The notes beneath the pieces were generated by a model. It saw only the letters and a program-made list of their open reading frames with translations, had not been told where the DNA came from and did not search any database. This document shows positions 1 through 56,263 of a DNA stretch of 64,000 nucleotides, one piece after another. The stretch lies in NCBI GenBank assembly GCA_016186325.1, contig JACPLW010000002.1, positions 66,290 through 130,289 on the forward strand, in the 5' to 3' direction. The position numbers and the translations under genes are program-made. Position 1 is the first letter of the stretch. Each line of letters begins with the position of its first letter. The DNA comes from Parcubacteria group bacterium. GTDB taxonomy: Bacteria > Patescibacteriota > Minisyncoccia > UBA10092.

Positions 1-13
1 ATCAAGCACAACG

Positions 14-748: not shown

Positions 749-790
749 AGACGGGTTTAAAAACATTTACACACTACCTTTAAACAAACA

Positions 791-1597: not shown

Positions 1598-1605
1598 TCC
1601 CCATA

Positions 1606-3072: not shown

Positions 3073-3082
3073 TTCGTAGTTT

Positions 3083-5065: not shown

Positions 5066-5074
5066 TTTCAATAT

Positions 5075-6031: not shown

Positions 6032-6044
6032 ATCTTAGAAATTT

Positions 6045-6473: not shown

Positions 6474-6478
6474 CAATC

Positions 6479-7144
6479 ATGCCGGAAACGCAAAAAACAA
6501 TTAAAGGGCCCGCAACACAGGAGTTTTTAGCCGTGGATGAAATCCGAGAAGATGTCGTTATTTTAAAAAACGGCGGGCTTCGGGCGGTTTTGATGACCGG
6601 TTCAAGAAACCTGGAGCTTGAATCAATCGATACTCAAAATGCCATCATCAAAAACTACGCCGATTTTCTAAATTCTTTTGACTGGCCGATTCAAATAATA
6701 ATCCATTCAAGAAAACTGGATATTAATCCCTATTTAAAATTACTTGAAGAAAAGTTAAAAACTCAAGAAAACGAGCTTCTAAAAATTCAGACAGCCGAAT
6801 ACATCGATTTTATAAGAAGTTTTGTTTCTCTTTCCGATGTGATGATTAAGAGGTTTTACATTTCCGTGGCCTTTGACCCAATTGAGTCAAAAACTGAAGG
6901 ACCGCTTGAAAAACTTGCCTCCATGATCGGCAAAGCGTCAAAAAAAGCCGCGCTTTCAGAAGAGATGTTCAAAGAATACAGAAGTCAAATGCTTCAACGG
7001 GTTGAACACACGGTCTTGACATTAGCCCACATCGGCATTAAGGCATCGCAGTTAAAGACAGACGAACTCATTGAACTGTTTTACAATCTTTATAATCCGG
7101 AAGATTTAGAGAAGAAAGACATTCAACTAACCGACAACTTGTAA
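6479..7144 (+). CDS. virB4: VirB4/TraC-family ATPase, N-terminal domain (separate ORF)
   Basis: Start motif TQEFLAVDEIREDVVILKNGGLRAVLMTGSRNLEL matches the VirB4/CagE N-terminal region; ends at TAA at 7145; next ORF in a different frame continues the family. Confidence 0.6.
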   Translation: MPETQKTIKGPATQEFLAVDEIREDVVILKNGGLRAVLMTGSRNLELESIDTQNAIIKNYADFLNSFDWPIQIIIHSRKLDINPYLKLLEEKLKTQENELLKIQTAEYIDFIRSFVSLSDVMIKRFYISVAFDPIESKTEGPLEKLASMIGKASKKAALSEEMFKEYRSQMLQRVEHTVLTLAHIGIKASQLKTDELIELFYNLYNPEDLEKKDIQLTDNL

Positions 7145-7161
7145 CAAAATAAGCAACCAAA

Positions 7162-9015: not shown

Positions 9016-9059
9016 ATTAGAGATTAGATATTAGGATTTAGAAATTATATAATGTATAT

Positions 9060-9521
9060 ATGGCACTAGCGGAAAAATTAGAAAAAAGAGAAGCTTCTTT
9101 AAAAGAAAAACTAACCAAAAAATCCCAGGAAGCCGAAAGAAGCAAAACAGTGAAAATTGATTCAATGGAATGGCTCATATTATTTATGGGCGCCGGCTAC
9201 ATTGATCTGCTTTTTGTAATTTTAACCGTTATAGGATTAATACCAGTAGTGGGACAGGTTATTTATGCCATTGCAGATCCGGCCATGAACATTATCGCTA
9301 CGGGCATATTTTGGTTTTACTTGCAGTATAAAGGACTCGGAGGTTATTGGTGGCTGGCCTTTGGAGGCGGCGTGGCGAATCTGATCCCTGTCGTTAATTG
9401 GATTGGCTGGATAATGGCGGTTTTAATTCTTTACTTCTTAATCAAGGCGGAAAAAATTCCTTTGGCCGGTGAAGCGATTGAAAAAGCCGCCAAAGCAGCG
9501 TCAAAAGTTCCGATTAAATAA
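9060..9521 (+). CDS. small polytopic membrane protein (3-4 TM), T4SS-associated
   Basis: 153 aa; charged N-terminus then hydrophobic stretches LILFMGAGYIDLLFVILTVIGLIPVV and WIGWIMAVLILYFLI. Confidence 0.45.
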   Translation: MALAEKLEKREASLKEKLTKKSQEAERSKTVKIDSMEWLILFMGAGYIDLLFVILTVIGLIPVVGQVIYAIADPAMNIIATGIFWFYLQYKGLGGYWWLAFGGGVANLIPVVNWIGWIMAVLILYFLIKAEKIPLAGEAIEKAAKAASKVPIK

Positions 9522-9524
9522 ATA

Positions 9525-10598
9525 ATGAAACACGCAACAAACAACATGCAACATAAAACATATAATTTAAAGCAATCGATTATGGCCGTATTTTTATTGT
9601 TTGTTTCATGTTTCATGTTTCGTGTTTCATGGGCATCGGCGCAATTTGAATTGCCAACAATAGGAAGCATTAAACCGGCTATTTCCTTGAGCTCCGACCC
9701 GTTAACACCTCTGCCTAATTCAACAATTACCATCGCCGCAAACCTTTCGGGAGTAACCGGCAGCGGAAGTTCAAACTACACATGGTTTTTAAATGGCGTG
9801 AGGCAAACCGAGCATTCCGGATTAAATAAGAGCAAATTTACTTTCAAAGCTAGCGCCATCGGCATTGTCTATAGAATAAATGTCAATGTTACAATGCCAG
9901 GCGGCGGAGTTCTTTCAGATGCTGCGGTTTTTACCGTCAGCGACGTTGACCTAAGCTGGAATGCATCCAGCGAAGCGCCGGCCGGCTATCGCGGTAAGAC
10001 TCTTCCAACCAAAAAGTCGGCAGTTTTGATATCGGCCCTGCCAACCATATACCAACCGGGAACGAAAGCCTTGATAAGTTCCGGCGGTTTAGTCTTTAAC
10101 TGGTTTATAAATGGTAAACTCCAAGCCGACAAGTCGGGAATCGGGCGATCTGACCTAAATTTTTATGTTGGCAGTTTCTCCGGAGGCAGCGAAGAAATCC
10201 GCTTAGAAGTAAAAACGGGAGATAGCACCGTTTCTCTAAACAAATTCGTTACCGTCCCAATAATGCGGCCTCAAACTTTTATATATGTTGCCGATAATAA
10301 AACGTCCTTGCCTTACGGCAAAGCGTTGAGAGATTTTTTTATAGAGTCAGCCACAGTTAAAGCAATCGACTTCGTGGCAGAAAATTATTTTTTCAACTTT
10401 CCTAAAAACCGGTTAAAATGGAGTTGGCTGGTTGACAGTAGAGAAATAATGGGAGGAGGGGATAAGCCGTGGTCTGCTGTTTTAAATGTTCCGGAGAACA
10501 TCGCCCGACCATTTTCTTTTCAAGTCAGGGCAGTTGCCCAAAATCCGCAGGAAGACTTGGAAATAGCCGAATCAACGGCAAACTTGAAAGTAAGATAG
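9525..10598 (+). CDS. secreted protein with three internal sequence repeats
   Basis: Signal peptide ending WASAQ; three repeats of the type NYTWFLNGVRQ / FNWFINGKLQ / LKWSWLVDSRE; its leader is paralogous to the leader of the next gene. Confidence 0.5.
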   Translation: MKHATNNMQHKTYNLKQSIMAVFLLFVSCFMFRVSWASAQFELPTIGSIKPAISLSSDPLTPLPNSTITIAANLSGVTGSGSSNYTWFLNGVRQTEHSGLNKSKFTFKASAIGIVYRINVNVTMPGGGVLSDAAVFTVSDVDLSWNASSEAPAGYRGKTLPTKKSAVLISALPTIYQPGTKALISSGGLVFNWFINGKLQADKSGIGRSDLNFYVGSFSGGSEEIRLEVKTGDSTVSLNKFVTVPIMRPQTFIYVADNKTSLPYGKALRDFFIESATVKAIDFVAENYFFNFPKNRLKWSWLVDSREIMGGGDKPWSAVLNVPENIARPFSFQVRAVAQNPQEDLEIAESTANLKVR

Positions 10599-10630
10599 GA
10601 TGACGAATCATAAAACGCATAACCTGAAAC

Positions 10631-11059
10631 ATGAACAACAAAACCCACAACCTAAAGTTACCTGCCACGGCTGTATTTTTATTATTTGTTTTATTTTTTG
10701 CGCTTTACACTTCACCGGTTTTGGCCCAATACCGGCTTGAGACCGGGCTTCCCGGCGTACCCGGCGGGAAGTTACCGGCAGGAACCGAACTCCCTTCTTA
10801 TCTTAGATACCTTTTTATCTTTGGGTTGGGGTTTATTACTGTTTTGGCTCTTAGCGTAATGATGTTTGGTGGCATCCAATACATTCTGGCGGCTGGAAAC
10901 GCGGCTAAAACGGAAGAAGCTAAAGCTTGGATTCAACAAGCGCTCTTCGGCCTTGGCCTGCTTTTGGTTTCTTATCTCCTTCTAAGAACCATTAATCCAG
11001 ATTTGGTTAATTTGAGAAACCCTAATCTCGCCCCAACCCAACTTCAAAGTTCACCATAA
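10631..11059 (+). CDS. VirB2/TrbC-like pilin candidate (signal peptide plus two hydrophobic helices)
   Basis: 142 aa; leader VFLLFVLFFALYTSPVLAQ then hydrophobic helix, short loop, second hydrophobic helix, as in T-pilin/TrbC subunits. Confidence 0.45.
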   Translation: MNNKTHNLKLPATAVFLLFVLFFALYTSPVLAQYRLETGLPGVPGGKLPAGTELPSYLRYLFIFGLGFITVLALSVMMFGGIQYILAAGNAAKTEEAKAWIQQALFGLGLLLVSYLLLRTINPDLVNLRNPNLAPTQLQSSP

Positions 11060-11061
11060 AT

Positions 11062-12159
11062 ATGTCCAAAAAAACTCTCTATATAATTTTAATAGTCATT
11101 GGCAGCCTCATTTTAATTGGAGGTTTAATTTGGTACTTTCTATTAAGGCAAACGGAAACATTGCCGCCGGGAACGGACTTTACGGTAAACGGCCAGCCCG
11201 TCACCGGCGAAAGCAAGCTCAAAGCCATAAGCAACGGCCCGGCTGTTGCCGCTAAGTTGAGTGGTGAAATGCTTTTGTTTTATGATTTTTCCGGCCAGCT
11301 GTGGCAGTTGCCAATCGGAACAACTGCGCCGGTCGCCGCCCCGCAGGCGACCATTGGCAATCCGGCAGATGTTGTCTGGTCGCCAGACCTTAAAAACATA
11401 GTTAAATCAGGAATTTGGCAAGCCGATATTAAATACGTTTTTTCCGACTTCACCAAAAAGACCTTGATTAATTTAAAAAGCGGGATTAAATCGCTCTCGT
11501 TTTCGCCCGACGGAGGAAAAATAACTTATTATGTTTTTGAAAACCTTAAAAGCAACAGTTTATTTACTAGCGACCCTGATGGTAAAAATCAAAGAGCGCT
11601 ACTGGTCTCTCTAAAGTTGCGAGACATAGTTTTAGCATGGCCTAAAATCAACCAAATAAGCCTGACCTCAAAACCAAGTGGTTTGATTCCAGGCGGAGTC
11701 TGGACCATTGACACTAGAAATCTCGTGTTTGCCAAAATTATTGGAGATTTTAACGGTTTGGAAATATTGTGGGCGCCAGACGGAAATAGTTTCGTTTATT
11801 CTTTTACCGACCAAAACGGGCGAAATCCCCAGTTGGCGGTACACAGCAAAAAAGGCGAGGAAAAAAACCTAAGCGGCATTTCAACTGTAATTGACAAATG
11901 CGCTTGGGCAAGTGATTCGATAAATGTGTTTTGCGCAGTACCGGAAAACTGGCCGGAAGGAATGGTTTTGCCTGACGATTACTATAAGAGAGTTGATTTA
12001 ACAGTTGATAACATTTGGAAAATTAACACCGAAACCGAAGAAAAAAGGTTGCTGGCTTCGGGTCTGGGAGACATTAAAAACCTCATAATCGATAAGAATG
12101 AAGACAATATGTTCTTCATTCTAAGAAACGACCAGGTTTTATATGAATTAAACTTTTAG
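11062..12159 (+). CDS. membrane-anchored TolB-like (PD40) beta-propeller protein
   Basis: N-terminal TM LYIILIVIGSLILIGGLIWYFLL; repeated SPDG/APDG blades (WSPDLKN, SFSPDGGKITYY, WAPDGNSFVYSF). Confidence 0.55.
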   Translation: MSKKTLYIILIVIGSLILIGGLIWYFLLRQTETLPPGTDFTVNGQPVTGESKLKAISNGPAVAAKLSGEMLLFYDFSGQLWQLPIGTTAPVAAPQATIGNPADVVWSPDLKNIVKSGIWQADIKYVFSDFTKKTLINLKSGIKSLSFSPDGGKITYYVFENLKSNSLFTSDPDGKNQRALLVSLKLRDIVLAWPKINQISLTSKPSGLIPGGVWTIDTRNLVFAKIIGDFNGLEILWAPDGNSFVYSFTDQNGRNPQLAVHSKKGEEKNLSGISTVIDKCAWASDSINVFCAVPENWPEGMVLPDDYYKRVDLTVDNIWKINTETEEKRLLASGLGDIKNLIIDKNEDNMFFILRNDQVLYELNF

Positions 12160-12617
12160 TTAATGTATTTAATCACAACCCGCCTTTCTTCACCTTCTCC
12201 GGCACTCTCCGTTTTTATATCCGGATGTGCAGAGAGTTCGATGTGAATGATTCTTCTGTCATAAGCCGTCATTGGCTCTAAAACCACTTCACGCTTGTAA
12301 AACCTGGCTTTATGAGCAGCTTTTTTAGCCAGCTCTTTAAGCGATCCGTCTCTTAAACTCCGGTAATTATTTACATCAAGGTGAAAGAACGGCGCTCCGT
12401 TTAACTTCTTTTTCAATATAAGCCGTAAAACCGTTTCAAACACACTAATGTTGCGTCCCCGCTCGCCTATATACGAACTTGGATCATCGGTCAAAAAGCA
12501 AATGTTAAGCGATTCTTCACTTCCGGTTTCAATGATTTTTATCTCAAAATTTGAAGCCCCCGTTTTTGCGAAAAACTCATTTGTTACATCTTTAATTTTT
12601 TCCAAGTTTTCGGTCAT
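12156..12617 (-). CDS. jag: Jag/KhpB RNA-binding protein (KH plus R3H domains)
   Basis: R3H signature YDRRIIH near the C-terminus; conserved position downstream of yidC in the rpmH-rnpA-yidC-jag cluster. Confidence 0.8.
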   Translation of the reverse strand: MTENLEKIKDVTNEFFAKTGASNFEIKIIETGSEESLNICFLTDDPSSYIGERGRNISVFETVLRLILKKKLNGAPFFHLDVNNYRSLRDGSLKELAKKAAHKARFYKREVVLEPMTAYDRRIIHIELSAHPDIKTESAGEGEERRVVIKYIN

Positions 12618-13305
12618 TTTTTTGAATGGTATATTGCTGAAGTAAAGTCATAAGGGTAACAACAACCCAATAAAGAGGCAGAGCAGAGGGCAGATTCCAG
12701 AAAATTATTACGCTCAAAATAGGCCCAAAATAAAGCATCTGTTGAGACATCATTCTGCTGAAATCCGCGGTTCCAGCAGACTTGGCGAAGGACGGCATGA
12801 TCATTTTTGTCTGAAAGTACTGCAATGCTCCAGCTATGATTGCTAATAACACGTTTCGCTTTGTTAAATCAAATATTCCGAGAAAGATCGGGCGGATTTC
12901 TTCGGGCGCTCTAATGAAAGAGTACAGTAAGTCTTGGTCTATTCCCGTGCCGTTTAAAAACACTCTCCATAAGGCAATTATGATGGGAATTTGTATTAAT
13001 AGCGGCAAAAAACCGCTAAGAGGATTAATTTTGTTTTCCGAATAAAGAGCCATCAGCGCTCTAGCTTTTGCCTCTTTGTCGTTTTTGAACTTTTTATTGA
13101 CTTCCTCTATCTTGGGTTTCAGTTTTTCTAAAGCTTTTTGGCTCCTGATGCCCTTACCGGTAAGAGGCCAGAGCGCCAACCGAATTAAAACCGTTAAAGC
13201 AACAATAGAAAGACCAAAATCATGATTGGGAATGATATTGTATAAAAAAACTAAAGCATTAAATAACGGCTGATAGAATGTTAAGTTAAAAAGATAGGAT
13301 ATCAT
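12592..13305 (-). CDS. yidC: YidC/Oxa1-family membrane protein insertase (short form)
   Basis: 237 aa polytopic protein with conserved YidC core helices (LIRLALWPLT, GFLPLLIQIPIIIALW); synteny with rnpA. Confidence 0.85.
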   Translation of the reverse strand: MISYLFNLTFYQPLFNALVFLYNIIPNHDFGLSIVALTVLIRLALWPLTGKGIRSQKALEKLKPKIEEVNKKFKNDKEAKARALMALYSENKINPLSGFLPLLIQIPIIIALWRVFLNGTGIDQDLLYSFIRAPEEIRPIFLGIFDLTKRNVLLAIIAGALQYFQTKMIMPSFAKSAGTADFSRMMSQQMLYFGPILSVIIFWNLPSALPLYWVVVTLMTLLQQYTIQKNDRKLGKN

Positions 13306-13630
13306 TTTTTGTGAGTAATTCTCTTAAATTATCTTTAATGCTCCTGTAATCTTTGTTTTTAGCGGGCTCTCTCGGCCATATGATAATATCATATCCTGGT
13401 TTTACCTTTTTAAACAAAAAAAGCGCTGCCGCTCTTAGCTGCCTTTTAATTTGGTTCCTTTTTGACGCTTTTTTATAAAACTTGGTGCTGACAATAAAAC
13501 CGAACCTGCTGAAATTTTTGTAATTTTTCACGAATTTCATCTTTACAAGGCCATTCTCACAAGTTTTTCCTTTAGTAAAAGCGTTTTTGAAGTCGCCGGT
13601 TGCCGTTAGGCGGTTAATTCTAGGAAGCAT
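13286..13630 (-). CDS. rnpA: ribonuclease P protein component
   Basis: 114 aa basic protein starting MLPRINRLTATGDFK; overlaps yidC start; directly downstream of rpmH. Confidence 0.8.
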   Translation of the reverse strand: MLPRINRLTATGDFKNAFTKGKTCENGLVKMKFVKNYKNFSRFGFIVSTKFYKKASKRNQIKRQLRAAALFLFKKVKPGYDIIIWPREPAKNKDYRSIKDNLRELLTKNDILSF

Positions 13631-13658
13631 ATGCTTGCATTTGCAAATGATAATAAAG

Positions 13659-13793
13659 TTAAACAGTTAGCTTATAACGGCCTTTTCGCCTTCTCCTCGA
13701 AATGACCGCGCCTCCGCCTTTACTACCCGCCCTTTTTAAAAATCCGTGCTTGCGTTGTCTTTTTATTTTTTTTGGATTATAGGTTTTACTCAT
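13659..13793 (-). CDS. rpmH: 50S ribosomal protein L34
   Basis: Hand translation of the minus strand gives MSKTYNPKKIKRQRKHGFLKRAGSKGGGAVISRRRRKGRYKLTV; not in the supplied ORF track because it is under 60 aa. Confidence 0.85.
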   Translation of the reverse strand: MSKTYNPKKIKRQRKHGFLKRAGSKGGGAVISRRRRKGRYKLTV

Positions 13794-13889
13794 CCCGTTA
13801 GAAATTTAATTCTAAATAATAATTTTCACTATATCTTAAAACTATAAACAATATATCCTGTTAAATAACTAGTATAGATTTCTAACAGG
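13794..13889. repeat. long-range inverted-repeat pair CCCGTTAGAAAT ... 72 bp AT-rich spacer ... ATTTCTAACAGG (copy a); left arm abuts the rpmH start codon
   Basis: Left arm 13794-13805 lies immediately 5' of the rpmH ATG on the minus strand; right arm 13878-13889 has one substitution that is a G-U wobble only on the minus-strand transcript. Confidence 0.7.
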
Positions 13890-14060
13890 ACTCATACTTT
13901 TATATTTTTATAACACGAAAATTGATATTGCGTCAAACATTTAAATTAATTTATACTTTTCAACAGAGTACTCACAGGTTATTAACTTTTTTACGAATGA
14001 AAGTTTTCTTAAAACCCTTTTACTTAATGATATACTGGAAATGTAGAATTTATAATCAAC

Positions 14061-15440
14061 ATGGATTTCAATGAATTGTGGAAAGCGGTTCTAGGAGATA
14101 TAGAACTGCAAATTTCAAAAGCAAATTTTAAAACTTGGCTACAAAATACCGCTATTGTAGATAAAAAAGACGGTGTTGTTACTATTGCCGTACCTAATGG
14201 CTTTACTAAAGAATGGTTGGAAAACAAGTACAATAAGTCTATCCTAAGGTCTTTGAGAAACATTCAGTCGGACATTAAAGAAGTAACTTATCAAATCAGC
14301 CAAAAACAAACAAAAAACATTGACAATAATCAGAAGCTCTCTAAAGAGGAGGGTGCAATTTCAAAAAAACAGCTCGATTTTGTCGAACTTAACGCGGATA
14401 CAGAGACAAATTTAAATCCCCGATATGCCTTTGAAAATTTCATTGTAGGCCCATCGAATGAGCTGGCTCATGCCGCCGCTATTGCTGTAACTAAAAATTT
14501 AGGGAAAAAATACAATCCACTCTTTATTTACGGAGGAGTGGGCCTGGGTAAAACCCATTTAATTCAATCAATAGGCCAAGCCGTTAAAAAAGAGCACCCA
14601 AATAAGAAGGTGAAATATGTCACTTCCGAAAGGTTCACTTCAGAAGTGGTTTCTACTTTAAGATCCGGAGCATTAAGATCAAACGATATTGATAACTTTA
14701 AAAAAAGATGGCGCGAAATCGATTTGTTAATAATTGATGACATCCAGTTTTTAGCCGGTAAAGAAAGAACTCAAGAAGAATTCTTCCATATTTTTAACGC
14801 TCTCTACGATGTCGGAAAGCAAATAGTACTTTCGTCAGACCGGCCGCCAAAATCAATCCAAAACATGGAAGAGAGGTTGAGATCTCGCTTTGAAGGAGGC
14901 ATGCTTGCCGACATATCATATCCCGACCTCGAAACCAGAATCGCTATTCTAAAAACCAAGGCTCATGAGAAAGGATTTCAAGCTTCGGACGAAGCTTATG
15001 AATTTATAGCTTCTAACATAAAAAAGAATGTAAGAGAACTTGAAGGAGCTTTAAACCGGCTAATAATAAATCGCCGCGACGACCAAAAGGAATTAACAAT
15101 AGTGGAAGTAAAGAAAAGTTTAAATTCAATTATAAATACCCCTAAAAAAATCACTACATTAAAAAACATTATTAAGGCCGTCGCGGAATTTTACGATATT
15201 AGTGAAAAAGACCTTTTAGAACGCTCCAGAAAAAAAGAAATAGTCAAACCTAGACAAATAATAATGTACCTTTTAAGAGAAGAATTAAAAAGTTCTTTCC
15301 CTTTTATCGGGATGAAAATTGGAGGACGGGATCATACTACTGCCATTCATGCGTGTGAAAAAATAAAAAAAGAACTCGATTCTAATCCGACTTTATGTGA
15401 TGAAATTAATGTAATAAGAGAAAAACTTTACCTTGTTTAA
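14061..15440 (+). CDS. dnaA: chromosomal replication initiator DnaA
   Basis: AAA+ Walker A GGVGLGKTHL, box VII and sensor motifs, C-terminal DNA-binding domain; dnaA-dnaN synteny. Confidence 0.95.
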   Translation: MDFNELWKAVLGDIELQISKANFKTWLQNTAIVDKKDGVVTIAVPNGFTKEWLENKYNKSILRSLRNIQSDIKEVTYQISQKQTKNIDNNQKLSKEEGAISKKQLDFVELNADTETNLNPRYAFENFIVGPSNELAHAAAIAVTKNLGKKYNPLFIYGGVGLGKTHLIQSIGQAVKKEHPNKKVKYVTSERFTSEVVSTLRSGALRSNDIDNFKKRWREIDLLIIDDIQFLAGKERTQEEFFHIFNALYDVGKQIVLSSDRPPKSIQNMEERLRSRFEGGMLADISYPDLETRIAILKTKAHEKGFQASDEAYEFIASNIKKNVRELEGALNRLIINRRDDQKELTIVEVKKSLNSIINTPKKITTLKNIIKAVAEFYDISEKDLLERSRKKEIVKPRQIIMYLLREELKSSFPFIGMKIGGRDHTTAIHACEKIKKELDSNPTLCDEINVIREKLYLV

Positions 15441-26099: not shown

Positions 26100-28604
26100 A
26101 TGAAACGTCTTATTTTAATAGATTCTCACGCTTTAATCCACCGCGCTTATCACGCCTTGCCGCCGCTTACTACCAAAAGCGGCGAATTGGTAAACGCGGT
26201 TTATGGCTTTACTTCAATTTTAATAAAAACCATTTCCGGTTTTAAACCGGACTATATTGTTGCCGCTTTTGACGCTCCCGGCGCCACTTTCAGGCATGAG
26301 GAATACAAAGAATATAAAGCGACTCGCGTTAAAGCGCCGGATGAGCTATACATCCAAATACCGCGCGTCAAAGAAATCTTAAACGCTTTCAAAATTCCAA
26401 TTTTTGAAAAGTCTGGGTTTGAAGCCGACGATATTATCGGCACAATTTCCAAAAATTTAAGGGGAAAAAACGTCGAGGTTCTGATTTTAACCGGAGACAT
26501 GGACAATTTTCAGCTTGTCGGAAAAAACGTTAAGGTTTTATATTCTCCTCCCAGCGCGGCCAAAGAGCAGATCGTTTATGATTCTAAAAAAGTTGAGGAA
26601 CGTTTCGGCGGCCTTAAGCCGGAACAACTTATTGATTTTAAAGGTCTCAAGGGCGACCCCTCGGACAATATTCCGGGGGTCAAAGGTATCGGAGAAAAAA
26701 CCGCGATTGCTTTGATTGATCGGTTTGAGAATATAGAAAATTTGTATAAAACTATTAAAAAAGGAAAAATTAAAGAAATTAGCGCCGCTGTTTTTGAGAA
26801 ACTAAAGACCGGAAAAGAAGCCGCTTTTTTTTCAAAAAAACTAGCGACTATAAAACAAAACGTCCCGATAAAGTTCAACTTAAAAGAAAGCGAATTCGGT
26901 AAATTTGATAAAGAAAAACTCTTTAAATTATTGGGAGAGTTAGGATTTGTAAGTTTGGTAAATCGTATGGGCGGGGCTATGGCGGGCAAGCCCCGCGGAA
27001 GCGAAGCGACTTTGCGGGGCAGTCCCTCCTCCGCTAAAGCTATGGCGGGCAGGCAGGGGACTTTGGCGATGCCTCCAAGTGCCGATATCAAGGGCCAAAT
27101 CGGTTATGATTTCAAATCTTTTATTAAAACTCCAAAAGGGAAAAAAATAGTTATCGGCGGCGGCGATTTTGACGTTATGATTGCCGCCTACATTCTTAAT
27201 CCGGGCGAGCGCGATTATAGTTTAGAAAAATTGAGTTTGGGGGAATTTGGCGCGGTTTTACCGAAAACCGAAGCTGTTTTAAAACTGGCGCCAATTTTAA
27301 AAAACCGGCTGATTGAAACCGAAACCGAAAAAGTTTTTAAAGAAATTGAAATGCCTCTTATACCGGTTTTGGCGAAAATGGAAATCGCCGGAATAAAAAT
27401 GGATGTTAAAAAGATAAATAAATTAGATGATTACCTCGGGAAAGAATTGAAAAAACTTGAAAATGAAATTTATAAGTTAGCCGGCGGAGAATTTAACATA
27501 AATTCGCCTCAGCAATTATCAGAAATTCTTTTTTTTAAATTGAAAATTCCTGGGGCTTTGGCCGGGGGTCGCATTAGAAAGACACCCGGCGGCGCGCTTT
27601 CAACCGGAGCGGCGGAACTGGAAAAACTAAGGTCGGGGCATAAAATCATTGATTTTATTTTAAAATATCGAGAGCTGGCAAAGTTAAAATCGACCTATAC
27701 CGATACGCTGCCGAAATTAGTCGATAAAAACAAGCGGATTCACACCACTTTTAATCAAGCGGGGACGGCAAGCGGGCGGCTGTCAAGCCAGGACCCGAAC
27801 TTGCAAAATATTCCGGCCCGCGGCGCTTGGGGCGATAAAGTGCGCAAAGCTTTTATTGCCGAAAAAGGATACAAATTTCTATCCGTTGATTATTCCCAGA
27901 TTCATTTAAGAATTATCGCGGCGCTAGCTGATGATAAAAAGATGATTGAGGCGTTTAAAAACGGATTAGATATTCATAAATTTACCGCTTCCGAAATAAA
28001 CAATGTGCCAATTGAGAAAGTTACCGGCGAGATGCGTTTTGCCGCTAAGGCGCTTAATTTTGGAATAATTTACGGTATGGGAGCCTTAAGCTTTGCCGAA
28101 TCGGCCGGCGTCAGCCGCGAAAAAGCCAGAGAATTTATTACTGAATATTTGAAGGATTTTTCCGGCATCGCCCGTTATATGGAAATTCTAAAAAACAAAG
28201 CCAAAGAATTGGGATTTACCGAAACGCTTTTTGGCCGCCGGCGCTATCTTCCGGAAATTGATTCGCCAAACCCGATGCTTCGCGCTCAAGCCGAGCGGAT
28301 AGCCGTTAATATGCCGATACAAGGCCTTGAAGCCGACATTATTAAAAAGGCGATGATTGAAATTGATAAATGGCTGCGCGGAAATGACAATATTAGAATG
28401 ATTTTGCAAGTCCATGACGAACTACTGTTTGAAGTCAAAACGGGTTTTGTAAAAGAAGCGGCTAAAAAAATTGTAGAACTTATGGAAAGCGTAATAAAAT
28501 TAAAAGTGCCGATTATCGCAGAAGCCAAGGTGGGTGATAATTGGGGGGAAATGGAACCATACAAAAAATATGCCGGAATTGCCCGAAGTACAAACAATCG
28601 TTGA
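26100..28604 (+). CDS. polA: DNA polymerase I (5'-3' exonuclease plus polymerase domains)
   Basis: N-terminal FEN-like domain, polymerase motifs A/B/C (e.g. RRYLPEI, QVHDELLFE); carries a GC-rich in-frame insertion. Confidence 0.9.
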   Translation: MKRLILIDSHALIHRAYHALPPLTTKSGELVNAVYGFTSILIKTISGFKPDYIVAAFDAPGATFRHEEYKEYKATRVKAPDELYIQIPRVKEILNAFKIPIFEKSGFEADDIIGTISKNLRGKNVEVLILTGDMDNFQLVGKNVKVLYSPPSAAKEQIVYDSKKVEERFGGLKPEQLIDFKGLKGDPSDNIPGVKGIGEKTAIALIDRFENIENLYKTIKKGKIKEISAAVFEKLKTGKEAAFFSKKLATIKQNVPIKFNLKESEFGKFDKEKLFKLLGELGFVSLVNRMGGAMAGKPRGSEATLRGSPSSAKAMAGRQGTLAMPPSADIKGQIGYDFKSFIKTPKGKKIVIGGGDFDVMIAAYILNPGERDYSLEKLSLGEFGAVLPKTEAVLKLAPILKNRLIETETEKVFKEIEMPLIPVLAKMEIAGIKMDVKKINKLDDYLGKELKKLENEIYKLAGGEFNINSPQQLSEILFFKLKIPGALAGGRIRKTPGGALSTGAAELEKLRSGHKIIDFILKYRELAKLKSTYTDTLPKLVDKNKRIHTTFNQAGTASGRLSSQDPNLQNIPARGAWGDKVRKAFIAEKGYKFLSVDYSQIHLRIIAALADDKKMIEAFKNGLDIHKFTASEINNVPIEKVTGEMRFAAKALNFGIIYGMGALSFAESAGVSREKAREFITEYLKDFSGIARYMEILKNKAKELGFTETLFGRRRYLPEIDSPNPMLRAQAERIAVNMPIQGLEADIIKKAMIEIDKWLRGNDNIRMILQVHDELLFEVKTGFVKEAAKKIVELMESVIKLKVPIIAEAKVGDNWGEMEPYKKYAGIARSTNNR
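26966..27090. repeat. GC-rich palindromic element inserted in-frame in polA, flanked by a 13-bp direct repeat GCTATGGCGGGCA
   Basis: Direct repeats at 26975-26987 and 27047-27059 flank the hairpin CCCCGC-GGAAGCGAAGCGACTTT-GCGGGG; encodes GAMAGKPRGSEATLRGSPSSAKAMAGRQG in the linker between the nuclease and polymerase domains. Confidence 0.7.
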
Positions 28605-29460: not shown

Positions 29461-30417
29461 ATGGTTATCTTTCTTTACGGAGAGGATTCTTATAGGATTG
29501 CGCAGAAACTAAAAGAGTTGGTTTCCGCCTATAAAGCCAAAAATCCAAGCGGCTTGAATTTTATTTCCCTTGATTTTTTCGAAAATAGTCCCGATGACTT
29601 AATGAGAAATATAATTTCCAACTCTTTTATTCCGGAAAAAAAACTTATTGTTGTCAAAAACATTTTTTCCGCCAAAGGCGAGACATCGCCCCTTCAGGGC
29701 GGGAAGGCAGACTCCGCGCTTTTAACGGATTTTCTAAAAAATAGCGATATCATTTCAGACCAGAATACCATTTTAATCGCATTAAGTTTTGGAAAGTCCG
29801 ATAGCAAAAACGAACTTTTCAAATATTTAACAAAAAAGCCAAATTTATCAGAGCGTTTTGAAAATTTAAAGCCCTATGAAACTAAAAATTGGGTGAGGAA
29901 CTCTTTAAGGCGGTCGGGGATTGAGATTGCCGGCGAAGCGCTGGATTTTCTTGTTTTAAGTTGCGGATATGACTCTTGGCGGCTTGGCGGCGAAATTAAA
30001 AAACTGACGGATTATAAAAATAAAGGCGTTATTCTTAAATCCGAGATTGAAAAATTAGTCGCGACCTCCGCTAATTACAACGTTTTTGAATTGACCGACG
30101 CTTTGGCAAGCAAAAATAAAAAAAGGGCTCTTTTGGCGCTTCACAAGGCTCTTGATAATGGTGAAAAATCAAATGAATTATTGGGGCTTTTGGCCTGGCA
30201 AATAAGGAATCTTTTGCGTTTTAAATTAGGCTCCGGGGAATCTGCCGGAACAAAACTTCATCCATTTGTTTTAGGAAAGCTTAAAGAATCGGCAAAGCTT
30301 TTTTCTCTTGAAGAACTGAACCGAATTATGTTTGGGATAATAAGTCTTGATTTGGCTTTCAAAACCAGCGATGTCAATGAAAAAACCGCGCTTTCCATTT
30401 TGGTAGCGGAGTTATAG
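29461..30417 (+). CDS. holA: DNA polymerase III delta subunit
   Basis: N-terminus MVIFLYGEDSYRIAQK typical of HolA; 318 aa; contains an in-frame GC palindromic insert at 29680-29708. Confidence 0.7.
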   Translation: MVIFLYGEDSYRIAQKLKELVSAYKAKNPSGLNFISLDFFENSPDDLMRNIISNSFIPEKKLIVVKNIFSAKGETSPLQGGKADSALLTDFLKNSDIISDQNTILIALSFGKSDSKNELFKYLTKKPNLSERFENLKPYETKNWVRNSLRRSGIEIAGEALDFLVLSCGYDSWRLGGEIKKLTDYKNKGVILKSEIEKLVATSANYNVFELTDALASKNKKRALLALHKALDNGEKSNELLGLLAWQIRNLLRFKLGSGESAGTKLHPFVLGKLKESAKLFSLEELNRIMFGIISLDLAFKTSDVNEKTALSILVAEL

Positions 30418-31790: not shown

Positions 31791-31887
31791 TTATCAATCC
31801 CGACGTAAAAGTCGGGACTCCGACCGAAACTCCGACGGTACCGTCGGAGAATGCGTCGGAGTTAAAAAAAGCAAGGATAATAGTAGT

Positions 31888-32096: not shown

Positions 32097-32173
32097 AACA
32101 ACCCCGCAGCCCCGACGTTATAGTCGGGGCTCCGACCCCTTAAAGGCGTCGGAGCTGCGGGGTTGTTTTTTTT
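32097..32173 (+). terminator. compound terminator: 14-bp outer stem AACAACCCCGCAGC/GCTGCGGGGTTGTT with two inner hairpins, followed by a T tract
   Basis: Inner hairpins CCCCGAC-GTTATA-GTCGGGG and CTCCGAC-loop-GTCGGAG, then TTTTTTTT. Confidence 0.65.
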
Positions 32174-32459: not shown

Positions 32460-33221
32460 TTACGTCACCGCGTAGATTCGCTCGACCTCTTCGCCGAGCC
32501 ATATGTTGATGACCAACTTGGACTTCTCGACGACTTCACGCAACTGCGGCATGAGTTCCGCCTCGAGTTCCTGCTCCAGTTCGCGTTGCTCATCCTCATC
32601 GCCTTCGGCGACCATGTCGAGCATCGGTTGGACGATAATCCTCTTGAGCACGTCGGCGTCCATGAACTTGTTCATCGCCTTCTTAGAGAGGGCGACGAAC
32701 TGCTTCTTGGTGAGCATCCGCCGCGTGATCTCGTCGGTCGCGTTCTCGAGCGCGAGAAGTTCGGTCGGTAGGATGCCACGTTCGGCCGCGAGGTCGAGCA
32801 CTGTCGTGACCCACCGCCAGTATTCCTCGTAGGGATTCTTGCGGGGCGGGACCATCGCATGCACCATCTCGAAGATGTTCTCGAACATCAACTTCTCGAG
32901 CATCTTGCGCTCCTCGGCTTCGAGTTCGACGCCCTCGGTCCTCGCGATCTCGTTGATCATTGAAGGGACGAATCGGACGAAATCCCGAGACGAAAGCAAA
33001 GGCGTTGTGCGCCGGTTCTGCTTGAGGCGACGAGCGAGCACGTCGGAGATCCAGTCCGCGAACTTGTTTTTGATCGCGATGGCCTCCGGCTTCTCCTCCT
33101 GGACCTCGTTGCCGAGTTCCTGTTGGAGGCGTACTTGAAACTTCATCTGCTTGCTTTGCTCCGCGTTGAAACGCGCGAGGAGCAACGACTTAAGTTCCGC
33201 CACGGTCATGGTTTTTTTCAT
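32460..33221 (-). CDS. hypothetical protein encoded by a compositionally foreign (~57% GC) gene
   Basis: 253-aa helical charged protein; GC3-rich codons (CTC, GAG, GCG, CGC) contrast sharply with the AT-rich flanks; strong AAGGAGGAAAG RBS and host-like AT-rich upstream; lack of stops produces many antisense ORFs. Confidence 0.6.
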   Translation of the reverse strand: MKKTMTVAELKSLLLARFNAEQSKQMKFQVRLQQELGNEVQEEKPEAIAIKNKFADWISDVLARRLKQNRRTTPLLSSRDFVRFVPSMINEIARTEGVELEAEERKMLEKLMFENIFEMVHAMVPPRKNPYEEYWRWVTTVLDLAAERGILPTELLALENATDEITRRMLTKKQFVALSKKAMNKFMDADVLKRIIVQPMLDMVAEGDEDEQRELEQELEAELMPQLREVVEKSKLVINIWLGEEVERIYAVT

Positions 33222-33471: not shown

Positions 33472-33557
33472 TGGTGCCGCGGGAGAGAGTCGAACTCTCA
33501 TGAGGTTGCCCTCAATGGATTTTGAGTCCATCGTGTCTGCCATTCCACCACCGCGGC
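33472..33557 (-). tRNA. tRNA-Leu (anticodon CAA), type II with long variable arm, CCA encoded
   Basis: Hand-folded: acceptor GCCGCGG/CCGCGGC, D-loop AATGGCAGA, anticodon stem ATGGA/TCCAT with loop CTCAAAA, variable arm GAGGGCAACCTC, T-arm GAGAG-TTCGACT-CTCTC, terminal ACCA. Confidence 0.85.
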
Positions 33558-38031: not shown

Positions 38032-40137
38032 CTAAATTTCAGTTTCTTTATCTTTATTTTCTTTGTCCTCCGACTCGTCTGCCAAAGCCTTGGCGTCGGT
38101 GGAATCTTTTGGCGAAGGAGGATTAGGGTTCTGCCAAGTGGCCCAGTCGCATTGCGGATAGCTCGAACAGCCCCAGAAAGTTTTTCCTTTTCTGGTCCGG
38201 CGCTTCACAATTTGGCCGGTGTCACATTTTTTGCAAGCCCCCAAATCTTCCTTGCCTTCCGTAGCTTCAGCGGAGGAGGGTTTTTCTAGGTTAGCGGTGT
38301 ATTTACAAGCCGGAAATCCGGTACAGGCGTAAAACTTTCCGTATCGTCCCATTCTGATAATCACCGGCTTTCCGCACTCGGGGCATTTAAGCTCTGTTGC
38401 TTCGGTTGCGAGTTCGCTTTTAGAAAGTTCGGTGCTTTTTTTATCGAGATTTTCTTTAAATGGTTCCCAAAATTCTTTGATAACAGGCTGCCACTTCTTT
38501 TTTCCATCGGCGATATCGTCAAGGTCTTCTTCCATCTTGGCAGTGAATTTAATGTCAACGACCTTGGGGAAATGAAGAACCAAGATGTCGCTTACCAAAA
38601 TACCAATATCAGTCGGCTTTAATCTTTTTTGTTCGTCTTTAATAACATAGCGGCGCGCCTGTATGGTCGCTAAAGTCGGGGCGTATGTTGAAGGCCGGCC
38701 GATGCCGTGCTCCTCAAGCGCTTTGATTAAACTAGCTTCGTTATATCGGGCCGGCGGTTCTGTAAAGTGTTGTTCCGATTTTAGTTCTTTTAGTTTCAAT
38801 TCCTCGTTTTCCAGAAGGTTTGGCAAGTTTGTTTCGGCAGTTTTCATCGGATAAACTTTAAGAAAACCGTCAAATTTTAAAACATTGCCGGTAGCTCGGA
38901 AAACATAATTTTCTTTGGATTTTCTTTCCGCGGAAATATCGGCCGATGTCGCTTCAAAAACTGCTGTCGGCATTTGAGTGGCTAAAAACCTTCTCCAAAT
39001 CAAGTCATAAAGCTTAAACTGTTGGGGTGTTAGTTTGTCTTTCAAAGAATCCGGGTTTGTAGAGGATTGAGTCGGTCGGACGGCTTCGTGCGCTTCTTGG
39101 GCCGATTTCGATTTAGTCTTAAAAATCCGCGGTTCCGGCAACAAATAATTTTTGCCGAACAACTTTTCTATTTCTTTAAAAGCAGCTGTGACGGATTCTT
39201 TGGAAAGGTTAACTGAATCTGTTCTCATATAGGTTATGAAACCGGTTTCATATAATTGTTGGGCGACTACCATTGTTTGTCTGGCACCAAAACCGAATTT
39301 TGAAAAAGCTGTCTGCTGAAGGGTGGAAGTGGTGAAAGGCGGAAGCGGCTGTCTTTTCATTTCTTTTTTTGTTATTTTTTCTACCGAATAATCGGCGCCG
39401 TCTAAGTCGGATATGATTTTTTTTGCATCATCCGCGGTTTTGATTCCAAACTTTTCCAATCTCTTTTCCCCGATTTTTATAAGATTAGCTAAAAATTCAC
39501 CTTCCTTTGAATTGGAAATTGGAAATTGAAAATTGGAAATTCTCGATTTACGCAGTACTGCGTAAATCGAGTGATATTCTTCCGGTTTGAAATTCAAAAC
39601 TTCTTTTTCTCGCTCAACCACGAGACGGACGGCTACCGATTGGACGCGGCCGGCCGATAATCCGCGGGCAACTTTTTTCCATAAGAAAGGGGAAAGCTTG
39701 TAGCCGACTAAGCGGTCAAGAATCCGCCGCGCCTGCTGGGCGTCTACCAGCCGCATATCAATTCCCCGAGGATTTTTCAGCGCTTCTTCTATCGCGGATT
39801 TGGTAATTTCATGAAAAACAATTCTCTCATGCGGTTTTTTTTCTAGGCCGAGAGCGCTCACAAGATGCCAGGAAATGGCTTCGCCTTCGCGGTCTTCATC
39901 TGTCGCTAAAATTACCTTTTCCGATTTTTTTGCCTCACTTTTGAGGTCGGCGACTCTCTTTTTGGCTTTCGGTAAAATTACGTATTGGGGTTCAAAGTTT
40001 TTTATAATATCAATTCCGAGTTTTTTTTCCGGTAAATCCCGAACATGGCCGTATGAGGATTCAACTTTAAAATCGCTCCCAAGGAATTGTGAGATGGTTC
40101 GGGCTTTAGTTGGCGATTCAACTATTACTAATTTCAT
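38032..40137 (-). CDS. topA: DNA topoisomerase I
   Basis: Toprim start MKLVIVESPTKART, catalytic region, multiple C-terminal Cx2C zinc ribbons; contains two in-frame repeat-element insertions (38070-38124 and 39487-39566). Confidence 0.9.
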   Translation of the reverse strand: MKLVIVESPTKARTISQFLGSDFKVESSYGHVRDLPEKKLGIDIIKNFEPQYVILPKAKKRVADLKSEAKKSEKVILATDEDREGEAISWHLVSALGLEKKPHERIVFHEITKSAIEEALKNPRGIDMRLVDAQQARRILDRLVGYKLSPFLWKKVARGLSAGRVQSVAVRLVVEREKEVLNFKPEEYHSIYAVLRKSRISNFQFPISNSKEGEFLANLIKIGEKRLEKFGIKTADDAKKIISDLDGADYSVEKITKKEMKRQPLPPFTTSTLQQTAFSKFGFGARQTMVVAQQLYETGFITYMRTDSVNLSKESVTAAFKEIEKLFGKNYLLPEPRIFKTKSKSAQEAHEAVRPTQSSTNPDSLKDKLTPQQFKLYDLIWRRFLATQMPTAVFEATSADISAERKSKENYVFRATGNVLKFDGFLKVYPMKTAETNLPNLLENEELKLKELKSEQHFTEPPARYNEASLIKALEEHGIGRPSTYAPTLATIQARRYVIKDEQKRLKPTDIGILVSDILVLHFPKVVDIKFTAKMEEDLDDIADGKKKWQPVIKEFWEPFKENLDKKSTELSKSELATEATELKCPECGKPVIIRMGRYGKFYACTGFPACKYTANLEKPSSAEATEGKEDLGACKKCDTGQIVKRRTRKGKTFWGCSSYPQCDWATWQNPNPPSPKDSTDAKALADESEDKENKDKETEI

Positions 40138-40244: not shown

Positions 40245-41213
40245 TTATATCTTTACAAATTTTCCGCCGATGTTTTTTATTATACCCCGTATTTCCAACA
40301 TTGAAATTGTTGATAATGTCCGACTCATTGGCATTTTGGCAATTTCTGAAATTTTATCAACGTGGAGCGGCTCTATTTCAATTGTTTTTAAAATTAACGC
40401 CTCTTCTTTGCTAATGTCGTTTTCAGGCATTTTTGTTGCCTTGGGTTTTAAATCCGTTAAGTTCAGTTCTTCCAGAATGTCATCAATAGAAGAAACCAAC
40501 TTAGCGCCCTTTTTTATTAAACTATTGGTGCCTAAAGAATTTTTTGAAAATAACGATCCGGGAATGGCAAAAACTTCCCGGTTTTGCTCTAAAGCCAGGC
40601 GCGCGGTAATTAATGCCCCGGATTTTTCCGGCGCTTCAACAACCAGTACGCCGCGGGAGAGTCCGGCAATTATTCTGTTTCGTTCGGGGAAAAACCAAAT
40701 TTCCGATTTGGTCCCAGGCGCGTATTCGCTTATAACCGCTCCGCCGGAACTTACTATTTTATCAACCAATTTTAAGTTTTCGGAGGGATAAATGGACTCG
40801 TCATCCATGGCTGAGCCCAAAACTGCGATAGTTTTGCCTGCCCGCCCACTAGCGTGGCCGCTTCCGGCAAGCGCCCCTAAGTGAGCCCTGGTGTCTATGC
40901 CCAGCGCCAGTCCGCTCACAATGTTAAGGCCTAACTCCGATAATTCTTTAGCAATTTTAAAGGCTAAAGTTTTGCCATAGTCCGATGCCGCCCTAGTTCC
41001 GACGATAGCGAAATTCAAATCGCAACTCTTTGGCAGAATGCCCCTTACATGCAATTGTTTTGGAGCGTTGTGAATTTCTTTAAGAAGCTTAGGGTAATCT
41101 TGCGAAGATTTTTTTATGATTTTGATTTTATCTTCGGCGCTGGTCATAATGGTTAAAAACCATATCAGAATTTTTTTGATTTGACAAATCGAGGCAGGGT
41201 ATTGACATCGCAA
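40245..41213 (-). CDS. dprA: DNA processing protein DprA/Smf (natural transformation)
   Basis: Rossmann-like core motifs GTRAASDYGKTLA, VVSGLALGIDTRAH and C-terminal winged helix. Confidence 0.8.
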   Translation of the reverse strand: MRCQYPASICQIKKILIWFLTIMTSAEDKIKIIKKSSQDYPKLLKEIHNAPKQLHVRGILPKSCDLNFAIVGTRAASDYGKTLAFKIAKELSELGLNIVSGLALGIDTRAHLGALAGSGHASGRAGKTIAVLGSAMDDESIYPSENLKLVDKIVSSGGAVISEYAPGTKSEIWFFPERNRIIAGLSRGVLVVEAPEKSGALITARLALEQNREVFAIPGSLFSKNSLGTNSLIKKGAKLVSSIDDILEELNLTDLKPKATKMPENDISKEEALILKTIEIEPLHVDKISEIAKMPMSRTLSTISMLEIRGIIKNIGGKFVKI

Positions 41214-44883: not shown

Positions 44884-45456
44884 TTATTGAGAGCCGCTCG
44901 TCAGCCCCGACGGTACCGTCGGGGCCAGTTGGCGGATGGCTTTTTTTATGGTCTTATCAAGTTCTTTTAATTCTTCGGGCGTGAATTTTTTTAATATTAT
45001 CTTATCCGCTTTTACTCTTGTATTTTGCTTGCCCGCCGACTTGTCCGCCAAAGCTTTGGCGTCGGCGGAAGCTTTAGCGAAGGCGGGTTGGATGCCGATT
45101 CTCAAGCGCCAGAAGTTTTTTGTTTTAAGATTTTTTATTATGGATTCAACACCCTTGTGGCCCGCCGAAGAACGACCGAAAGAAAGTTTGAAATTGCCCC
45201 ACAAGATATCAATGTCGTCATGAGCAATTAAAACATTTTCCGGCTTTATCTTAAATTTTTTCATCAAAGCCAAAACCGCCGCTCCGGATTTATTCATAAA
45301 AATCCCAGTTTTAGCTGAAACAACTTTTTTGTTTTTATAATTATTTTCTAAAGCATCAATAAATAAAAAGCCTGCGTTGTGCCTGGTGAGCTCATATTCT
45401 TTTCCGGGATTGCCAAGCCCGATGATTAATTTGACCCCGTTAGAAATTTTATTCAT
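44884..45456 (-). CDS. pth: peptidyl-tRNA hydrolase
   Basis: LIIGLGNPGKEYELTRHNAGF catalytic motif (His-Asn); C-terminal region contains in-frame repeat elements (45031-45088) and a palindromic tail CCCCGACGGTACCGTCGGGG. Confidence 0.85.
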   Translation of the reverse strand: MNKISNGVKLIIGLGNPGKEYELTRHNAGFLFIDALENNYKNKKVVSAKTGIFMNKSGAAVLALMKKFKIKPENVLIAHDDIDILWGNFKLSFGRSSAGHKGVESIIKNLKTKNFWRLRIGIQPAFAKASADAKALADKSAGKQNTRVKADKIILKKFTPEELKELDKTIKKAIRQLAPTVPSGLTSGSQ

Positions 45457-45531: not shown

Positions 45532-45628
45532 TTGATTTTATCCATTTTTAGTATATAATTATCTGGTATTTTGTATATTGTATCTGGTATCTAGTATACC
45601 AAATACAAAATACCAAATACAAAATACA

Positions 45629-56221: not shown

Positions 56222-56263
56222 CCCTTGCCCGCCGAAGCTTTAGCGAAGGCGGGTTTCATTTAC

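Follow-up and report, generated by a model that had tools for sequence, protein, structure and literature searches.

How did a compact, GC-rich block bounded by short direct repeats come to lie in frame within the gene of DNA polymerase I, and what is it made of? The question is raised by the polA gene on a stretch of 64,000 nucleotides (the window) from contig JACPLW010000002.1 of a Parcubacteria group bacterium (assembly GCA_016186325.1). A preliminary description of this DNA had read the block as one unit of about 60 nt that entered polA in a transposition-like event, with flanking 13-bp repeats that resemble a target-site duplication. Our analysis points to a different answer, to which we assign a probability of roughly 0.7: several small insertion units, each a hairpin rich in GC, have collected in a linker that is disordered and tolerates insertions, and the polA block is composed of them. 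These units are probably copies of a propagating hairpin element, which we call E30.

The GC-rich hairpin block and its 13-nt direct repeats are present in the sequence as described. A direct sequence check found exactly two occurrences of GCTATGGCGGGCA, at 26976-26988 and 27039-27051, so that the two copies proposed at first (starting at 26975 and 27047) exist, with coordinates that were off by 1 and 8 nt. The copies are offset by 63 nt, corresponding to 21 codons, and the repeat reaches 16 nt when one mismatch is allowed. The 50 nt bracketed between them correspond to 26989-27038, and the arms of the CCCCGC...GCGGGG hairpin to 26991-96 and 27014-19. The insert is in frame and carries AMAG(K/R) on both sides, as had been stated: the block has no stop codon and encodes the peptide GGAMAGKPRGSEATLRGSPSSAKAMAGRQGTLAM, with AMAGK at residues 293-297 and AMAGR at residues 314-318. 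Its assignment to the linker also holds, since the block falls between the Pfam matches to the 5'-nuclease domains (residues 3-271) and to the polymerase domain (residues 438-817). This linker is predicted to be disordered, given that the AlphaFold2 model has a predicted local distance difference test score of about 25 over residues 290-330. At the DNA level, the block belongs to a GC island (26962-27084, 63-68% GC) inside polA, as compared to about 40% GC in the window. The parts of the locus, read 5' to 3', are the following:

26100 to 28604, plus strand: polA, encoding DNA polymerase I of 834 aa (open reading frame, ORF, with Pfam 5' nuclease and pol A domains).
26970 to 26975, plus strand: GGCGGG, the resident Gly-Gly codons of the linker (codon comparison with 10 relatives, which have GGY GGR).
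26976 to 26990, plus strand: proximal direct repeat, a 15-nt copy of E30 positions 16-30, GCTATGGCGGGCAAG, encoding AMAGK (sequence match).
26991 to 27023, plus strand: single-copy 33-nt hairpin unit composed of CCCCGC, a 17-nt loop, GCGGGG and CAGT, encoding PRGSEATLRGS.
27024 to 27054, plus strand: complete E30 element, CCCTCCTCCGCTAAAGCTATGGCGGGCAGG(C), encoding PSSAKAMAGR and including the distal direct repeat (consensus, covariance model).
27054 to 27071, plus strand: CAG GGG ACT TTG GCG ATG (QGTLAM), the conserved PolA sequence that resumes 3' of the insert (alignment).

E30 is a hairpin unit of 30 or 31 nt with the consensus CCCGCC-TYC-GCYRARGC-TWY-GGCGGG-CARG. A 6-bp GC stem (CCCNCC/GGNGGG) is followed by a 3x3 internal loop and by a 3-bp inner stem (GCY/RGC) over two bases; the unit begins with CCCNCC and ends with the 3' tail CARG(C), the hairpin itself measuring 26 nt. 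The copy in polA at 27024-27054 shows 0 mismatches with respect to the degenerate consensus and scores 47.8 bits with the covariance model (E = 1e-7). The pairing was tested on copies from loci that had not been selected for E30 content. Standard pairs were found in 96.4% of the cells, and six of the nine pairs had changed on both sides; a value as high was obtained in 0 of 500 shuffles, and registers slid along the alignment gave at most 67.5%. Positions 12 and 15 form a Watson-Crick pair in 153 of 155 copies, whether the host is AT-rich or GC-rich, and positions 8, 13, 19 and 29 vary independently. With only two bases in its loop, the inner stem has an unusually tight turn, which would be easier to picture in DNA, or in a form bound to protein, than in free RNA. 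As for the surroundings of the copies, the 5' flank is variable, the 3' base is C in 70% of them, and no fixed flanking motif is present.

The polA block was compared with its orthologues. The PolA protein of the window is 100% identical to P0001, annotated as 'DNA polymerase I [Parcubacteria group bacterium]', and its closest other relatives, Candidatus Azambacteria among them, are 75-80% identical. Across 36 relatives, the segment that LGFVSLINRL and QGTLAM enclose is hypervariable, in its sequence as well as in its length, and its flanks are conserved; Q319, G320 and L322 are invariant in the alignment. In outgroups that have a complete 3'-5' exonuclease domain the insert is absent. The comparison with relatives thus bears out the earlier view of the block as inserted DNA.

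The anatomy of the linker was then read at codon level from the DNA of ten relatives. The shortest linker, that of L001, runs GGT GGA CAG AAG and continues directly with CAG GGG ACT. At this point between CAG AAG and CAG, the polA genes of L082, L086, L081 and L084 have exactly 30 nt more; the junction in L082 reads CAG AAA, the 30 nt, and CAG GGA, and the unit in L081 is CCCGCCTCCGCTGAAGCTATGGCGGGTAAG. The orthologue of this 30-nt unit in the window is 27024-27053, CCCTCCTCCGCTAAAGCTATGGCGGGCAGG. The lineage-specific DNA begins directly 3' of GGCGGG (26970-26975); it amounts to the 48 nt of 26976-27023, which substitute for the codons CAG AAA with a net gain of 14 codons. The same site holds other material in the relatives: L083 has a nested double unit of 63 nt, L002, L084 and L085 have a 42-nt unit (ARLPEPAAQAAGGQ), and L084 and L087 have a 36-nt unit (GPARMTEVIQSG). 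Neither the 42-nt nor the 36-nt unit has a match in the analysed data beyond the polA site.

As judged from these alignments, the distal repeat belongs to a resident, orthologous E30, and the proximal repeat is likewise element sequence. Because the distal repeat lies in a complete E30 and the proximal one copies the 3' half of that element, the 13-nt repeats are element sequence and not a duplicated target. Moreover, the rare variant GCTATGG (A19/T20) occurs in both polA repeats of the window and in the polA copies of the relatives, and T at position 20 was found in 5 of 79 E30 copies elsewhere. Since both copies carry the rare T20 variant, the proximal half-copy most likely derives from a local duplication rather than from a second invasion. 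The block might therefore have been built in three steps. An ancestor of the clade would have gained E30 between GGQK and QGTLAM; in the genome of the window, the 3' half of the resident E30 would then have been duplicated locally; and the single-copy 33-nt hairpin would have settled between both, which would yield the direct repeat of 13-16 nt.

In the preliminary reading, one mobile hairpin (about 50-60 nt) would have entered polA by transposition, with 13 bp of the host target (GCTATGGCGGGCA) becoming duplicated. This reading accounts for an exact 13-nt direct repeat, 63 nt apart, that flanks a hairpin, and the rare variant common to both repeats fits a local duplication event. Four observations nevertheless make it very improbable. 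What is repeated is the 3' half of the E30 element; the DNA between the repeats includes the 5' half of the resident E30, so that not all of it is new; the 5' half of E30 would be expected before the first repeat, where polA's own GGCGGG is found; and E30 insertions elsewhere occur without any duplication. The reading as a target-site duplication fails, since neither repeat is host target and none is generated when E30 inserts. The insert is also not one unit of about 60 nt, being made up of a half-copy, the 33-nt hairpin and a complete E30. What survives of the proposal of transposition-like insertion, as opposed to slippage, is the insertion of mobile-like hairpin DNA; the target-site-duplication mechanism does not. 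A repeat of this kind would by itself say little, since at least one exact local 13-mer repeat (14-100 nt apart) occurs somewhere in 32% of Markov shuffles of the window and may arise by chance. The GCTATGGCGGGCA repeat is meaningful because both of its copies match a dispersed element family.

That E30 inserts without duplication is seen where filled and empty sites can be compared. In the fpg gene of L081, GTWKM[LARRSLGEGG]AHGTW contains an E30 in reverse orientation; in L085 and L088, EKCP[RLRQGFGGQA]HRC contains a forward E30, read in frame 2, inside the zinc finger. In the other four fpg orthologues aligned, namely the window, L086, L087 and whichever of these relatives is empty at the site in question, neither insertion is found at that position. 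At the DNA junctions, AAAATG^...^GCACAT and TGTC^...^CTCACA, exactly 30 nt were gained and nothing was duplicated, and taken together the filled and empty sites of fpg and polA show no duplication of more than 1-2 nt. In pth, the orthologues have after RIGIQP either 0, 1 or 2 (nested) E30 units or other small repeat units, and in TopA of L081 the sequence KEKEPQ stands where the topA of the window carries E30. In a GC-rich lineage, a CopA-like ATPase has a comparable hot spot after DKTGTLT, which E30 occupies in different orthologues, being read in frame 0 in one of them and in frame 2 in the other. Judging by these orthologues, gains and losses of E30 involve a clean block of 30 nt, in either orientation and with no target-site duplication, the block appearing a little less clean in pth and topA than in polA and fpg. 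In-frame hosts of E30 are polA, topA and pth in the window, and fpg, holA and others in relatives.

Copies also occur inside one another. Five of 151 copies sit exactly between positions 12 and 13 of another copy, the one in L083 between positions 11 and 12, and the one in pth between positions 18 and 19. Since copies nest in the apex of others, this suggests that stem and tail define the unit and that the loop may carry cargo.

These gains also bear on a purely local origin of the block, in which slippage or template switching during replication would have produced it in a linker that is GC-rich, prone to hairpins and of low complexity, with no mobile element involved. The length of the linker is hypervariable among relatives that are 75-80% identical, the half-copy resembles a local duplication, weak internal similarities exist (repeat families D2 and D13), and the 33-nt hairpin has no other copy; these points favour a local process. 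Such a process does not explain why the 30-nt unit is found at unrelated loci, here and in many organisms, with unrelated flanks, or why the same clean gains of 30 nt occurred in fpg and pth. In addition, the two 63-nt units have only 16 nt in common, and the hairpin in the middle has no counterpart in the second unit. For this reason we consider a local origin of the whole block improbable. Tandem duplication by slippage was rejected, as the adjacent units are not homologous along their whole length (16/63 nt). We also rejected a CRISPR array, given that only two partial repeats are present, within a conserved ORF, and that the dispersed copies are single or nested.

The accumulation of hairpin units is further supported by the number of E30 copies in the window. 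The covariance model gave 8 matches of 27-53 bits, and the mismatch scan found 6 copies as compared to 0 in 15 Markov shuffles. Five of the 8 copies are intragenic. Besides the copy in polA, the eight comprise the following:

6369 to 6408, plus strand: E30-like unit with an additional loop hairpin (CCCGCAAAGCGGGG), in the PrgI-like ORF (6045-6473); 27.7 bits.
38062 to 38121, minus strand: degenerate nested double unit of 60 nt in the C-terminal tail of topA, with the inner copy at 38073-38103; 28.6 bits.
38250 to 38280, minus strand: E30 in topA (ORF 38032-40137), between two zinc ribbons, encoding PSSAEATEGK; 42.4 bits.
45028 to 45087, minus strand: nested double E30 of 60 nt in pth (ORF 44884-45456), encoding PAFAKASADAKALADKSAGK (scan and covariance model).
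56223 to 56253, minus strand: intergenic E30 abutting tRNA-Pro (56151-56221); 53.1 bits.
56333 to 56363, plus strand: intergenic E30, inverted with respect to the 56223 copy and 80 nt away from it; 51.4 bits.
60756 to 60786, plus strand: E30 overlapping the 3' end of tRNA-Leu(taa), with the compensatory stem variant CCCACC/GGTGGG; 44.5 bits.

The inner copy in pth is at 45040-45069. The arrangement of outer and inner copy in the topA tail is the same as in pth, so that the nested 60-nt form occurs twice in the window.

Beyond the window, metagenomes were searched with a degenerate pattern of 24 nt from which the 5' arm had been left out. At least 120 metagenome stretches match it; in about 90% of the matches listed, a complementary CCCNCC lies directly upstream, and the flanks farther out are unrelated. 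With the 31 IMG/VR contigs that also carry E30, the total exceeds 150 metagenomic and IMG/VR contigs. Among the matches listed, the GC content of the host contigs spans 32 to 70%, with contigs of at least 55% GC accounting for 93 of the 155 copies. All named genomes that contain E30 belong to Patescibacteria (Azam-, Zambryski-, Moran-, Uhr- and Nomurabacteria). In the plasmids and phages of cultured bacteria, partial matches occurred at chance level only, with no real E30 among them. On contigs below 45% GC, 21 of 31 copies lie within ORFs whose length is 200 aa or more. Both orientations and several frames are represented, and the genes concerned on AT-rich contigs encode HsdR, HsdM, a ClpB-like protein, CopA, GatB, leucyl aminopeptidase and PEP-utilising enzymes. 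Searches of the open-access full-text literature found no description of the E30 sequence, of its peptides or of repetitive extragenic palindromic (REP) sequences or other palindromes in the candidate phyla radiation (CPR)/Patescibacteria.

The common E30 variants are free of stop codons in five or six of the six frames. Because its 30 nt are exactly 10 codons and its frames are nearly stop-free, E30 is tolerated inside genes: in a surface loop or linker, a copy is a harmless decapeptide rich in Ala, Gly, Ser, Lys and Arg that leaves the gene unbroken. A different view would be that E30 is kept for a function, as a linker peptide module, as an RNA or DNA signal (pause site, mRNA stabiliser or protein-binding site) or as a DNA-uptake signal in these competence-dependent bacteria. 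The hairpin is indeed conserved with compensatory changes, and in AT-rich hosts sense frame 0 (PAFAKASAGK) is the commonest coding arrangement (15/31). Many hosts are genome-maintenance genes (polA and topA, and fpg in relatives), which recalls the bias of uptake sequences and intragenic REPs (PMC3733652); moreover, the window encodes DprA and a T2SSE-type ATPase (type II/IV secretion family). However, the copies of E30 cover every frame and both orientations and extend to non-coding DNA, so that no single peptide is the conserved unit. E30 is also freely present or absent among close orthologues, and DNA-metabolism genes are in any case numerous in the window, which is proximal to the origin. 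The copies do not resemble terminators and differ from the real terminator-like sites of the genome, and an Rfam scan of the window returned three tRNAs only, with no family match for E30. On balance, retention for a function seems to us unlikely.

Several points weigh against a composite of mobile hairpin units. The covariation of E30 was counted on an alignment fitted to the model, and its movement is deduced from the comparison of orthologues and was not observed directly. No mobilising gene, such as one for a REP-associated tyrosine transposase (RAYT), was found among 20 ORFs of the window or among 10 neighbours of intergenic copies elsewhere; these neighbours are unrelated ordinary genes. 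A motif scan for small GIY-YIG genes within 2 kb on either side of 82 copies also found none. The predicted single-strand fold energy of the polA block is within the shuffle range (z = -0.9). The 33-nt hairpin shares the E30 architecture, with a 6-bp GC stem and a CAG tail, and its similarity to reverse-complemented E30 is within the shuffle range. No second copy of this hairpin was found in the window, in 208 loci or in IMG/VR, so that its mobile origin is no more than possible.

Finally, the lineage-specific 48 nt of polA are known from one contig of one assembly. As repeats can mislead assemblers and the exact protein has this single source, 26976-27023 might be an artefact of assembly or binning. 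We regard this as the least credible of the alternatives, since the segment is in frame with no stop codon, a repeat of 13-16 nt is below the usual assembly k-mers, and the independent assemblies of L083 and L084 have equally complex in-frame composites at the same place.

As to how E30 moves, it may be mobilised in trans as a single-stranded DNA hairpin whose stem and tail would be the signal for recognition and cleavage, by analogy with known systems. A hairpin with a short tail, insertion without target duplication and in either orientation, a preference for the apex and cargo in the loop are traits shared with single-strand hairpin systems. Mobilisation of single-strand DNA of the REP/RAYT or IS200/IS605 type is on these grounds a possibility that we put forward only tentatively. 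In IS200/IS605 elements, the signal is a DNA hairpin with a short adjacent cleavage motif, and no target is duplicated, which would make them the nearest mechanistic analogy. They differ in having two different subterminal hairpins and in inserting 3' of a fixed tetra- or pentanucleotide, whereas E30 has one hairpin and no fixed motif.

Among the described families of short palindromes, E30 most likely resembles a mobile hairpin of the REP type or of the type of Rickettsia palindromic elements (RPE), unusually broad in distribution and unusually compatible with coding sequence. REP sequences and the bacterial interspersed mosaic elements (BIME) that they form belong to GTAG- and CGTC-tagged superfamilies, and many intragenic REPs lie in replication and repair genes, DNA polymerase I included (Di Nocera et al., 2013, PMC3733652). 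E30 is similar to them in being a GC-rich imperfect palindrome, 20-40 nt long, one end of which carries a short conserved tail, in its multiple copies per genome, which are single, in inverted pairs or in arrays, and in that no target duplication is known. Unlike REPs, it has no terminal GTAG or CGTC tag, GTAG being only internal and limited to the half of the copies that have A19. REPs are mostly extragenic, downstream of genes, whereas E30 is intragenic in 5 of 8 cases in the window and in 21 of 31 on AT-rich contigs; and REP families are usually specific for a species or genus, as opposed to hosts of 32-70% GC for E30.

RPEs, said to have been described by Ogata and co-workers in 2000, reportedly lie in frame within ORFs of functional, often essential proteins. 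In-frame insertion into functional ORFs and reduced, AT-rich host genomes are common to both; however, RPEs are about 100-150 bp long, CGTC-tagged and limited to Rickettsia (summarised in PMC3733652), whereas E30 has 30 nt (a fifth), no CGTC and distant hosts.

The GC clusters of yeast mitochondria are also short GC-rich hairpins in AT-rich genomes, with substitutions biased to the loop and with merging and shuffling into composites, and some copies of these clusters, as of the byp elements, are in coding sequence. To our knowledge, no element-encoded enzyme is known for GC clusters or byps. In Magnusiomyces mitochondria, the byp elements interrupt the reading frame, and ribosomes bypass them; E30 needs no such bypass because its reading frame stays open. 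GC clusters such as GC42 duplicate an AG target (Wu and Hao, 2015, PMC4478555) and are organellar, whereas E30 is bacterial and shows no AG duplication at its junctions. [quoted passage not shown] They are 70-300 bp long, with terminal inverted repeats derived from insertion sequences and with target-site duplications, as opposed to a single 26-nt hairpin with a tail and neither of these features. The classification of E30 as a MITE was rejected, its length being 30 nt and no duplication exceeding 1-2 nt at filled and empty junctions.

A bolder proposal, which we consider doubtful, is that E30 is one of the smallest prokaryotic mobile elements, a gene-less 30-nt hairpin that moves both inside and across widely different uncultured bacteria (with contigs classed as viral among its hosts) and writes 10-residue indels into loops and linkers of essential proteins (PolA, TopA, Fpg, Pth, ClpB, CopA, GatB). 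E30, together with sister families of similar size, would then be a major unrecognised source of protein length variation in Patescibacteria, and DNA uptake between symbiont and host might be the route of its transfer. If E30 is what it seems to be, many of the 10-residue insertions that set proteins of Patescibacteria apart would be footprints of selfish hairpins and not adaptations, essential enzymes would tolerate and retain them at a few hot spots, and the motif could help to trace recent DNA exchange among uncultured lineages. In annotation, the hairpin units produce spurious antisense ORFs and junk peptides, and in alignments they inflate apparent divergence. The question made testable is how a 30-nt sequence with no gene and no target duplication is copied to new sites.

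Other observations concern the genes discussed above. The PolA proteins of the window clade are without about 70 residues of the N-terminal 3'-5' exonuclease domain (around residues ~326-437), which the outgroups P0033, P0036, P0040 and P0042 retain; the hot spot of hairpin inserts lies at the scar of this deletion. A 12-mer repeat (VSNKVSNK) lies a little downstream of the E30 site in PolA relatives, and an antisense ORF of 171 aa (26576-27091, minus strand), probably an artefact of stop-free GC-rich units, overlaps the polA block. In fpg, the E30 of L085 (3920-3990) and L088 (6801-6870) splits the first CxxC-type cysteine pair, a surprising site for a tolerated insert of 10 residues. Some pth orthologues have at the E30 hot spot the sequence IQNTKYKIQNT, which looks like a translated heptamer repeat; in the window, a tandem repeat of an AATACAA-like heptamer (45596-45615) is directly upstream of pth. 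In dprA (ORF 40245-41213, minus strand), a GC-rich island at 40835-40881 encodes AGSGHASGRAGK within the conserved GxDxxAHxGAL...TIAVLG region; its last letters, GGCGGGCAGGC, are those with which E30 ends at its 3' side, and the island may represent a decayed unit. Further arrangements were noted in L138 (281-557), L112 (1250-2200), L101, L137, L153, L164, L166 and L225: E30 variants form arrays resembling BIMEs, with alternating orientation and AT-rich hairpins in the loops (L138), and on GC-rich contigs E30 is often within short heptamer tandem repeats.

The window contains two further families of short palindromes. The second in-frame GC-rich hairpin family (..CGAGACMTCGCCCCTTCRGGGCGGG..), encoding ETSPL[RQ]GG, is represented at 7189-7240 in a VirB4/TraG-like ORF (7162-9015) and at 29669-29719 in holA (ORF 29461-30417). 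In HolA, this 10-residue insertion is absent from the orthologues of L085 and L088 and decayed in L081, which has a different 10-residue insert, QPKAGPPLAE. The third family (CCCCGACGGTACCGTCGGGG) has three copies (31830-31849, 32110-32129 and 44905-44924) as compared to 0 expected; one of them is at the 3' end of pth, and a long perfect palindrome spans 32099-32165.

With regard to the remaining genes, positions 1-12200 hold a plus-strand ORF cluster with the PrgI-like protein (6045-6473) and the VirB4/TraG-like ATPase (7162-9015), surrounded by large ORFs of which several are Pro-rich and none has a Pfam match; the cluster looks like a type IV secretion or conjugation-like system by the origin region. 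An AT-rich gap at ~13630-14061 separates a yidC-like gene (12592-13305, minus strand) from ORF 14061-15440, which is dnaA by synteny with L086. The cumulative GC skew has its minimum at this gap, where replication probably starts. Possible foreign DNA is an ORF of about 253 aa (32460-33221, minus strand), with GC far above that of the genome and no Pfam match, which adjoins tRNA-Leu (33472-33557). A 24-nt tandem repeat is present at 5850-5890 in the Pro-rich ORF 5075-6031.

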